Shown piece by piece: positions 28,075 through 29,271 of a stretch of 64,000 nt of DNA. The notes beneath the pieces were generated by a model. The model saw nothing but the letters and a program-made list of their open reading frames with translations. It searched no databases and was not told where the DNA came from. The translations under genes were made by a program, and so were the position numbers. Each line of letters begins with the position of its first letter. The first letter of the stretch is position 1. Source of the DNA: Actinomycetota bacterium (lineage in GTDB: Bacteria > Actinomycetota > CADDZG01 > WHSQ01); contig JBOGWU010000277.1 of assembly GCA_050693935.1 (NCBI GenBank), forward strand, positions 1,289 to 65,288, written 5' to 3'.

Positions 28075-29271
28075 ATGGACACATGGAGAGCAAACGTGAG
28101 AATTCTCATTCTGGGTGGTGACGGCTACCTCGGGTGGCCGACGGCAATGAATCTGGCCAACCAAGGCTACGACGTGAGCGTGGTGGACAGCTTCCATCGC
28201 CGGCTCTGGGACGACGAGATCGGCTCTGGCTCGCTTACGCCGATCAAGTCCCTGCGTGAGCGGGTCCGAACGTGGAACGAGGTCGGCGACCGCTCCATCG
28301 AGATGTTCGTGGGAGATATCTGCGACTGGGACTTTCTCGCCGGCGTCTTCAAGGAGACTCAGCCCGAGGCCATCGTGCACTACGGCGAGCACCGCGCCGC
28401 CCCCTTCTCGATGCTTTCGCGCCGGCACGCGGTCATGACTCAAGTCAACAACGTCGTAGGCACCCTGAACGTGCTCTACGCGATGAAGGAGTTCACGCCC
28501 GAATCGCACCTCGTCAAACTCGGAACGATGGGCGAGTACGGCACGCCGAACATCGACATCGAAGAGGGCTTCATCAAGATCAACCACAACGGGCGCAGCG
28601 ACATCATGCAGTTCCCGAAGAAGCCGGGCTCGTTCTACCACCTCTCCAAGGTCCACGACAGCCACAACATCGAATTCGTTTGTCGCGTGTGGGGGCTGCG
28701 CGCGACCGACCTCAACCAGGGCGTCGTCTACGGAGTCCACACCGACGAGACCGAGCTGCATCCCGATCTCGCGACGCGTTTCGACTACGACGACGTTTGG
28801 GGCACCGTGCTCAACCGCTATTGCGTCCAGGCCGCCATCGGCCATCCACTGACCGTCTACGGTAAGGGCGGTCAGACGCGCGGCTTCCTCGACATCCGCG
28901 ACACGCTGGCCTGCGTCGAGCTCGCCATAGCGAATCCTGCCGACATGGGCGAGTTCCGCGTCTTCAACCAGTTCACCGAGCAGTTCACCGTAGGTGAGCT
29001 CGCAGAAAAGGTCGCCGAAGGAGCCCGCAAGCTCGGCTGGGAGCCCACCATCGAACACCTGCCGAATCCGCGCGTCGAGCAGGAGGAGCACTACTACAAC
29101 GCCAAGCACACCAAGCTGCTCGACCTGGGTCTCGAGCCCCACCTGCTGTCTGACACGCTCATCGACGGCCTTCTGGAGACCGTGCGCGACCATGCGGAGC
29201 TGGTGGATCGCGATCTGCTCTACCCGAGTCATAGCTGGACCGAGGGCAAGCTCGCCAAGCCCCTCCACTAA
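28075..29271 (+). CDS. sqdB: UDP-sulfoquinovose synthase (SQD1/SqdB/Agl3 family SDR)
   Basis: This is ORF 28042..29271. The likely start is the ATG at 28075, or the GTG at 28096 that follows the SD ggagag. Long family-specific blocks are present: [138 protein letters not shown] and [26 protein letters not shown]. Confidence 0.9.

Follow-up and report, generated by a model that had tools for sequence, protein, structure and literature searches.

What does a non-phototrophic bacterium do with an enzyme that makes activated sulfoquinovose (SQ), a sugar seen almost wholly as the head group of a phototroph sulfolipid, with the N-glycan of Sulfolobus as the one exception? The question is raised by sqdB, a gene for a UDP-sulfoquinovose (UDP-SQ) synthase at positions 28096-29271 (forward strand) of a 64,000-nucleotide stretch of contig JBOGWU010000277.1 (GenBank assembly GCA_050693935.1) from an uncultured soil actinobacterium; this whole 64-kb stretch is called the window below. 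We argue, with a probability of roughly 60%, that UDP-SQ, possibly after epimerisation at C4, is loaded on polyprenyl phosphate, flipped, and passed by a glycosyltransferase of the GT-C fold to an acceptor in the cell envelope. The pathway steps beyond SqdB are drawn from a conserved gene neighbourhood and from family assignments. The fates already described for UDP-SQ are sulfoquinovosyl diacylglycerol (SQDG), formed via SqdX/SQD2 or SqdD/C/A (PMC13436972; bioRxiv 10.1101/2022.08.18.504050), and, in Sulfolobus, an N-glycan (PMC4388408).

The synthase and its gene

In a search of PDB sequences, the top matches of SqdB are three Arabidopsis SQD1 entries (1qrr and 1i24 among them; 579 bits, E about 5e-173), with residues 8-390 aligning end to end to 12-394 of 1i24, whereas the next-best solved enzymes of the short-chain dehydrogenase/reductase (SDR) type score below 40 bits. 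Aligned pairwise, SqdB and Arabidopsis SQD1 are identical at 63.7% of 380 residues, without a single gap. The NAD+ motif GxxGxxG is present as GGDGYLG (residues 7-13), and T144, Y181, H182 and K185 align to SQD1 residues T145, Y182, H183 and K186, with His183 counted among the catalytic residues. Thr145, Tyr182 and Lys186 are described as catalytic residues of SQD1 (PMC4388408). On the NCBIfam equivalog NF041015, SqdB reaches 470 bits against a cut-off of 575, which is no argument against membership because authentic Arabidopsis SQD1 also scores under it, at 485 bits; the cut-off appears to leave out the whole SQD1-type lineage. As firmly as homology allows, then, this gene encodes a true UDP-sulfoquinovose synthase of the family known from Arabidopsis and cyanobacteria, and the reaction is almost certainly the same. 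The original prediction had named an SQD1/SqdB-type synthase, an identity that the gap-free alignment and the retained motif and catalytic residues bear out. With Agl3-like proteins the enzyme shares only about 44% identity.

The gene lies within a forward-strand open reading frame (ORF) spanning 28042-29271, whose translation contains all three of the SQD1/SqdB peptide blocks that had been quoted in the original prediction. The ATG at 28075 proposed there as the start is in frame, but the likelier start is the GTG at 28096, preferred because GGAGAG at 28085-28090, a likely ribosome-binding site when the sequence is read directly, precedes it by 5 bases and because the 391-aa product on record (P0001) matches. 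GC content by codon position (GC1 0.64, GC2 0.39, GC3 0.84; window G+C 65%) is that of a real gene, in contrast to the overlapping antisense ORFs. A single sigma-70-like consensus match at 28076-28103 overlaps the start codon and is unconvincing, promoter and terminator scans gave no result above chance, and Rfam and tRNA scans of the 64-kb window came back empty.

The best 120 database relatives of SqdB are 74-98% identical to it and come from metagenomes or metagenome-assembled genomes (MAGs) labelled 'Actinomycetota bacterium', most of them carrying the JGI label UDP-sulfoquinovose synthase, a name that JGI gives to hundreds of homologs at 75-98% identity. Among GTDB species genomes, the five closest sqdB loci are Actinomycetota MAGs (75-87% identity), and relatives at 60-69% occur in Gaiellaceae, Acidobacteriota, Chloroflexota, Alicyclobacillus, cyanobacteria and others. 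SqdB itself thus adds a member to a known family, in a lineage of actinobacteria that is uncultured.

Genes and proteins linked to sqdB

Domains were assigned by Pfam and NCBIfam scans of about 60 ORFs across the 64 kb. The genes that recur around sqdB in related loci are, in the window, as follows:

26404-27957, reverse strand: Wzx/MATE-like flippase, 517 aa, about 12 transmembrane (TM) segments, divergent from sqdB (Pfam MatE 2.9e-15, Polysacc_synt 2e-11)
27958-28095, no strand: 138 bp of divergent intergenic DNA that separates sqdB from the flippase gene and holds the likely ribosome-binding site
28096-29271, forward strand: sqdB, SQD1-type UDP-sulfoquinovose synthase, 391 aa (PDB match and alignment to SQD1)
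39486-41447, forward strand: 653-aa polytopic membrane protein, about 14 TM segments and a C-terminal soluble domain (homologs beside sqdB in relatives)
41527-42477, reverse strand: GalE-like short SDR, predicted sugar-nucleotide 4-epimerase, 316 aa (solved C4-epimerase relatives)
42528-43580, forward strand: DUF2304 (3 TM) fused to a predicted GT2 polyprenyl-phosphate sugar synthase domain, 350 aa (DUF2304 9e-7, Glycos_transf_2 5e-22), called DUF2304-GT2 below
43554-44945, reverse strand: predicted GT-C-fold membrane glycosyltransferase, 463 aa, about 12 TM segments (AlphaFold2 model, Foldseek, weak Pfam PMT/PMT_2); electron transfer flavoprotein (ETF) genes come after it

When the window proteins were searched by tblastn against the six closest loci (L001-L006), the epimerase and DUF2304-GT2 genes were found to adjoin sqdB in L001, L002, L003, L004 and L006, and all six (SqdB 75-87%) have the epimerase and/or DUF2304-GT2 or the 653-aa protein beside sqdB, in varying order and orientation. 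In L001 (SqdB 87%) a Wzx gene stands on one side of sqdB, and on the other come, directly after it, the epimerase, DUF2304-GT2, a 462-aa membrane protein and the ETF genes. A Wzx-like ortholog (65-77% identical) is found beside sqdB in L001, L003, L004, L082 and L085. Homologs of the 653-aa protein (31-36% identity by tblastn, 36-39% in protein alignment) come directly after sqdB in L002 and L005, lie beside it in L085, and occur in the same clusters in L083 and L093. At L162 (SqdB 77%) the trio of SqdB, DUF2304-GT2 and epimerase stands alone among acyl-CoA, amidase and aminotransferase genes. A protein of the GtrA_DPMS_TM family (4e-12) is present in 26 more distant clusters, while the window's clade is missing the GtrA gene and has the Wzx-like gene and the fused DUF2304 domain instead.

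The association was also tested from the other side, by scanning the metagenome collection with DUF2304-GT2 in place of SqdB and reading the neighbours of each match, with the count restricted to the 14 loci having at least 3 kb on either side of the GT2 gene. SqdB is carried by 12 of these 14, the same 12 carry the epimerase, and in 10 of the 12 SqdB lies no more than 2.6 kb from the GT2. Identity to the window GT2 falls from 84% to 41% across the SqdB-positive loci; the two SqdB-negative exceptions, at 39% and 43%, are among the most divergent.

In two related clusters, L083 and L084, the GT2 and GT-C proteins are 83% and 61% identical to those of the window and the adjacent synthase is only 44% identical and of Agl3 type (NF041015, 545 bits): within one and the same cluster, a UDP-SQ synthase of one lineage has taken the place of a synthase of another. 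Synthases of the Agl3 type were seen at L083:4833-5834, L084:2810-3991, L086:1565-2749 and L110:1815-3113 (41-45% identical; NF041015 334-545 bits). On a neighbour-joining tree, GT2-linked SqdB genes fall in at least three separate SqdB lineages; the SqdB genes that have a GT4 (Chloroflexota, Alicyclobacillus) or different partners (Acidobacteriota) beside them are placed elsewhere. At L127, cysH, a phosphoadenylyl-sulfate reductase gene (L127:7687-8436; 261 bits, above cut-off) for a sulfite-producing step, sits between sqdB and the epimerase gene. Finally, on a 2.1-Mb contig (L163), a 766-aa protein (P0217; L163:8001-10301) joins an N-terminal half homologous to the window's 12-TM GT-C protein with a C-terminal half 44% identical to the GT2 domain, next to genes for a GtrA-like protein, an epimerase, a methyltransferase and an SqdB of 61% identity; the GT-C::GT2 architecture recurs in P0188 and P0220. 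Because of the synthase displacement, the spread over at least three SqdB lineages, the cysH gene of L127 and the P0217 fusion, we take the linkage to reflect function over inherited synteny.

Other arrangements were seen around more distant sqdB genes. In Acidobacteriota (L008-L079) the flanking genes encode a PMT_2 GT-C protein of 627 aa (27 loci), a GT21-like GT2 (23 loci), an asparagine synthase (21 loci) and a small EamA-like transporter (20 loci), as at L071:3278-5161, L030:11240-12409 and L022:5284-5724, and this set may be an independent arrangement of sqdB with a GT2, a GT-C and a small transporter. An arylsulfotransferase gene (PF14269) is present in a related sqdB cluster (L102:12140-14050), and the contig of P0095 holds two SqdB paralogs and a sulfatase.

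For DUF2304-GT2, the best NCBIfam matches are AglJ (2.5e-28), a dolichyl-phosphate (Dol-P) hexose transferase (6e-24), PpgS (5e-22) and ArnC (7e-12), and the best PDB matches are the dolichyl-phosphate mannose synthase (DPMS) of Pyrococcus (5mlz, 8e-17) and ArnC. Its nearest characterised relatives all load one sugar onto polyprenyl monophosphate, and at family level DUF2304-GT2 is predicted to be a DPMS-like GT2 that does the same. It has 1319 homologs. Each of the best 120 comes from uncultured Actinomycetota or is an unnamed metagenome sequence, and almost every one is a DUF2304-GT2 fusion. Rv3632, a small membrane protein that partners PpgS, belongs to the DUF2304 family (PMC3485146, PMC9671496).

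The epimerase has the Ser/Tyr/Lys triad (FASSGAAVG, SPYGAGK) and no dehydratase TDE motif, and its closest solved relatives are short C4-epimerases (6wjb/6wj9 at 173 bits, 4zrm, 6dnt, 7ys8); it scores below all NCBIfam equivalog cut-offs. Its K181, in the loop after NVYGP, is kept in 96% of 25 cluster epimerases, with S, Y or H in three GalE-like references, and is a candidate contact for the C6 sulfonate.

The GT-C protein is one of about 100 that make up a small family of their own, with Asp34 in the first loop invariant across the family, and NCBI names its homologs 'phospholipid carrier-dependent glycosyltransferase'. Its AlphaFold2 model, built from a 48-sequence alignment, has a pLDDT of 91.9 and a pTM of 0.92, and the top 20 PDB matches found with Foldseek are all GT-C enzymes (Pmt4, Pmt1/Pmt2, STT3/PglB/AglB, ALG3, ALG9, PimE, EmbA/B); the sequence profile of the family gave no significant match in the PDB (Pmt1, E 0.31). 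The best matches of the model are protein O-mannosyltransferases, a likeness that would fit a protein or a polysaccharide acceptor without discriminating between them. Two further candidates were considered. The 653-aa protein, which has no match in Pfam, NCBIfam or PDB-profile searches, is not supported as a second GT-C (hhalign against the GT-C family, 7.6% probability), and the 126-aa ORF at 44956-45336 was rejected as a GtrA analogue, having no TM segment and no family match and travelling with the ETF genes.

The inserted block and the rest of the window

Between sqdB and the 653-aa protein gene lie the following genes:

29561-30616, forward strand: long-form RmlA, glucose-1-phosphate thymidylyltransferase (TIGR01208, 461 bits, above cut-off)
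30617-31636, forward strand: RmlB, dTDP-glucose 4,6-dehydratase (TIGR01181, 420 bits, above cut-off)
31647-32324, forward strand: S-adenosylmethionine (SAM) methyltransferase (Pfam Methyltransf_23/11; start refined)
32362-33522, forward strand: WecE-like dTDP-4-amino-4,6-dideoxyhexose transaminase (NF008687, 445 bits, above cut-off; start refined)
33494-34888, reverse strand: polytopic membrane protein, 464 aa, about 10-12 predicted TM segments, possibly a polymerase or ligase; no Pfam or NCBIfam match
34916-35938, forward strand: GT2 glycosyltransferase (Pfam Glycos_transf_2 5e-30)
35935-36696, forward strand: sulfotransferase of the 3'-phosphoadenosine-5'-phosphosulfate (PAPS) type, its start overlapping the GT2 stop (Sulfotransfer_3, Sulfotransfer_1 about 1e-11)
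36735-37532, reverse strand: SAM methyltransferase (Pfam Methyltransf_23 6e-18)
37924-39486, forward strand: polytopic membrane protein, 520 aa, about 11 TM segments, weakly GT-C/PMT_2-like (PMT_2 8e-5, below gathering score)

The genes at 29561-39486 have no counterpart in L001-L006 by tblastn, and in L001, L003 and L082 the stretch from sqdB to the epimerase does not contain them. This block is a strain-specific insertion and not part of the conserved unit, and we rejected a single cluster covering the whole 26-45 kb region since 29.5-39.5 kb is missing in those three loci. The flippases, GT2 and GT-C enzymes that the original prediction listed as neighbours are present, as a Wzx/MATE-type flippase, two GT2 proteins and two to three GT-C-like membrane proteins. 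Its 'envelope-glycan cluster' is apt in that the neighbours are envelope-glycan enzymes but too wide, as only the 4-epimerase, DUF2304-GT2, GT-C and a Wzx or GtrA flippase are conserved. With a dTDP-4-amino-4,6-dideoxyhexose pathway, two methyltransferases, a GT2, a PAPS-type sulfotransferase, a 12-TM protein and a GT-C-like protein, the block looks like the gene set of another envelope glycan, one that probably carries sulfate and N- or O-linked methyl groups.

Genes flanking the sqdB unit keep their order in L001, L002 and L082, both at 20491-26391 (methyltransferase, MnmA, IscS-like, DUF6929 and T2SSE ATPase) and at 44956-47133 (the 126-aa soluble protein and ETF alpha/beta), and in this lineage the unit therefore keeps to one place on the chromosome. 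Elsewhere in the 64 kb are genes for LigA, a SpoIIE-type phosphatase/kinase, a SARP-like regulator, IscS, MnmA, a pilus-type ATPase, isocitrate/isopropylmalate-type dehydrogenases, PrpD-like proteins and a Tct transporter. On the reverse strand at 6900-15330 is an array of six tandem paralogous polytopic membrane proteins of about 400 aa, 39-58% mutually identical, with the common C-terminal motif LRYRLYDIDR-ISRT...RRFNRSRYDA; four members were scanned and gave no Pfam match. The first ORF of the array (819 aa) looks like two copies joined via an Arg/Pro/Ser-rich stretch, possibly by frameshift or fusion. The array coincides with a strong AT skew and adjoins a SARP/BTAD-AAA-TPR regulator gene (15507-18380, forward strand).

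A proposed route to the envelope and its alternatives

The route that we favour would begin with SqdB, its NAD+ tightly bound, turning UDP-glucose plus sulfite into UDP-SQ, which, as such or epimerised at C4 by the adjacent GalE-like enzyme, would be the donor for DUF2304-GT2. At the cytoplasmic face this enzyme would move the sulfosugar to polyprenyl (undecaprenyl or decaprenyl) monophosphate, like DPMS, PpgS, ArnC and GtrB. Flipping of the lipid-linked sulfosugar would fall to the Wzx-like protein and/or DUF2304 in this clade and to the GtrA-like protein in distant clusters, and outside the membrane the GT-C at 43554-44945 would use it on an acceptor that may be a wall polysaccharide, a lipoglycan or a secreted protein. 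That the transferred sugar is SQ or a derivative we infer from the gene linkage. It is plausible that the epimerase is a UDP-SQ 4-epimerase, because it is linked in all 12 SqdB-positive loci and because in the PpgS system an epimerase makes the actual donor; it could instead feed UDP-glucose from UDP-galactose. More tentatively, and on balance doubtfully, UDP-SQ 4-epimerisation would lead to a polyprenyl-phospho-6-deoxy-6-sulfo-galactose donor from which the dedicated GT-C decorates polymers of the wall, or secreted proteins, in a widespread and uncultured Actinomycetota lineage of soils and deserts, a joint reading that would, with the same doubt, take in several other lineages with the same trio. 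We know of no report of 6-deoxy-6-sulfo-galactose in nature.

The logic of this route has precedents. One is the N-glycan of Sulfolobus, although this is assembled on dolichyl pyrophosphate in the cytoplasm and not delivered as a monophosphate-linked single sugar. Agl3 of Sulfolobus acidocaldarius sets a precedent for SQ in a surface glycoconjugate, the S-layer N-glycan, and not a lipid (PMC4388408), but the synthase of the window is of the SQD1 type and shares about 44% identity with the Agl3-like protein found in L084, and no match to the AglB/STT3 oligosaccharyltransferase family was found in the 64-kb window. In Mycobacterium tuberculosis and Corynebacterium glutamicum, galactosamine is put on arabinogalactan via polyprenyl-phosphate-linked N-acetylgalactosamine (GalNAc) by the epimerase Rv3634c, PpgS (Rv3631), Rv3632 and the GT-C Rv3779 (PMC3485146, PMC9671496). 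The window shares with that set a GalE-like epimerase, a DPMS-like GT2, a DUF2304 partner (fused here) and a GT-C, and the same progression from UDP-sugar to polyprenyl-phosphate sugar to extracytoplasmic transfer; it differs in the tightly linked SqdB, in a GT2 that is no PpgS ortholog, in a GT-C of a separate family, and in a sugar that would be sulfonated. Likewise, GtrA/GtrB/GtrV, CsbB/GtcA/YfhO (PMC7389260) and ArnC/ArnEF/ArnT combine a polyprenyl-phosphate GT2, a small flippase and a GT-C outside the membrane, but with other donor sugars, and in the window's clade the flippase role would go to the Wzx-like protein and/or the fused DUF2304, not to GtrA. Haloferax AglJ/AglD, with AglR (Wzx-like) and AglS, also resembles the window set, AglJ being the top NCBIfam match of the GT2 domain, although that system is archaeal, with a dolichol carrier, mannose or hexose as sugar and protein N-glycan acceptors, and the GT2 scores 99 against the AglJ cut-off of 325. 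In Haloferax, the Wzx-like protein is regarded as flipping the Dol-P-sugar for a GT-C-like enzyme. The window system would work like the three-component glycosylation systems and is an ortholog of none. Open-access literature yielded no polyprenyl- or dolichyl-phosphate SQ and no bacterial wall glycan that contains SQ. Both the components and their logic have been described before; the novelty lies in the sugar, in the link with SqdB, and in the subfamilies to which the GT2 and the GT-C belong.

Several points weigh against the proposed route. All carriers are uncultured; in a search for a cultured one, the Sphaerisporangium GT-C homolog (P0222, 26% identity) had no SqdB nearby. The mycobacterial set (Rv3634c, PpgS, Rv3632, Rv3779) handles GalNAc, and the epimerase, GT2 and GT-C could form a self-sufficient N-acetylhexosamine (HexNAc) system. 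DUF2304-GT2 is a separate subfamily, its sugar donor left undefined by homology, because it scores far under every NCBIfam equivalog cut-off (99 of 325 bits for AglJ, 78 of 370 for PpgS, 45 of 529 for ArnC). The GT-C fold of 43554-44945 is a call that the predicted structure supports, with Foldseek probabilities of about 1.0 accompanied by E values of 1.6e-3 to 4.5e-2 and TM-scores of at most 0.48, and with sub-threshold Pfam PMT/PMT_2 matches. Trio loci of the L162 kind have no GT-C or flippase nearby, and the GT4-negative result covers 64 kb of genome, so that sqdX may lie elsewhere. A search for sulfite supply, as the original prediction had suggested, found no sulfate-assimilation or sulfite-supply gene in the 64-kb window and bore fruit only in the cysH of the related cluster L127.

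One alternative is an ordinary sulfolipid, in which an unlinked SqdX/SqdD, or the GT2 acting on a glycerolipid, would turn UDP-SQ into SQDG or another SQ glycerolipid. No bacterial fate of UDP-SQ other than SQDG is established, certain Gram-positive bacteria contain SQDG (bioRxiv 10.1101/2022.08.18.504050), there are cyanobacteria in which sqdB and sqdX are not linked (PMC13436972), and this alternative can also point to the 64 kb of visible genome and to trio loci like L162 without an adjacent GT-C. The original prediction had observed, though, that no SqdX/SQD2-type GT4 is adjacent, and this extends to the whole 64 kb and the six closest loci: no ORF scanned across the window has a GT4 or GT8 Pfam match, and tblastn with a Chloroflexota sqdB-adjacent protein, confirmed as a GT4, found no match in L001-L006 and, in the window, none with an E value of 0.2 or lower. 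Moreover, the lineages with a GT4 beside sqdB (Chloroflexota, Alicyclobacillus) are without DUF2304-GT2, whose best matches are polyprenyl-phosphate synthases and not lipid glycosyltransferases and with which GtrA, GT-C and the GT-C::GT2 fusion co-occur. The partner is not SqdX/SQD2, the host is non-phototrophic and the product is probably not SQDG; we consider this sulfolipid outcome unlikely, along with its product, a phosphate-sparing anionic membrane lipid.

A cytoplasmic use of UDP-SQ, in which a soluble or peripheral glycosyltransferase such as the GT2 at 34916-35938 builds a polyprenyl-diphosphate oligosaccharide that Wzx flips for polymerisation or ligation, would resemble the cytoplasmic assembly of the SQ-containing N-glycan in Sulfolobus and would suit the Wzx-like gene, divergent from sqdB and conserved there in five relatives, as well as the GT2, 12-TM protein and sugar-nucleotide genes right after the window sqdB. 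We judge it distinctly unlikely: the closest relatives that keep sqdB (L001, L003 and L082) lack the downstream block and, with it, this GT2, no initiating phosphoglycosyltransferase of the WecA/WbaP type was found in the 64-kb window, and what is retained universally is the pair of epimerase and DPMS-like GT2. Alternatively, SqdB and its neighbours could be independent, the epimerase, DUF2304-GT2 and GT-C forming a PpgS-like wall system for a HexNAc (e.g. GalNAc or galactosamine) and the co-located SqdB serving another acceptor. The homologous genes of Mycobacterium and Corynebacterium do without SqdB (PMC3485146, PMC9671496), and the closest solved relatives of the epimerase include 4-epimerases of UDP-N-acetylglucosamine/glucose. 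Yet SqdB stands in 12 of the 14 well-flanked GT2-anchored loci, the linkage persists through rearrangement and replacement of the SqdB lineage, DUF2304-GT2 is the sole glycosyltransferase near SqdB at L162, and its 78 bits compare with a PpgS cut-off of 370, making independence highly improbable.

A conserved set of UDP-SQ synthase, polyprenyl-phosphate sugar synthase, flippase and GT-C genes on hundreds of uncultured Actinomycetota metagenomic contigs, and in analogous form in other lineages, suggests that a sulfonated sugar is attached to the cell envelope by an undescribed route. Models of the organosulfur cycle have phototrophs making SQ and heterotrophs eating it (PMC13436972). If our reading is correct, extracytoplasmic sulfoquinovosylation of the envelope would be a new bacterial fate for SQ, yielding a strongly anionic, phosphate-free wall decoration that could replace teichoic-acid-like charge under phosphate limitation, a heterotrophic source of sulfosugars in soil, and a new testable donor substrate for the GT-C and DPMS fields; the trio of sqdB, epimerase and GT2 is small enough for direct expression and assay. 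Should the 4-epimerase version also hold, these clusters would define a new class of sulfonated envelope glycoconjugate with the first sulfonated polyprenyl-phosphate sugar donor, and would give the soil sulfur cycle a non-phototrophic source of sulfosugars.

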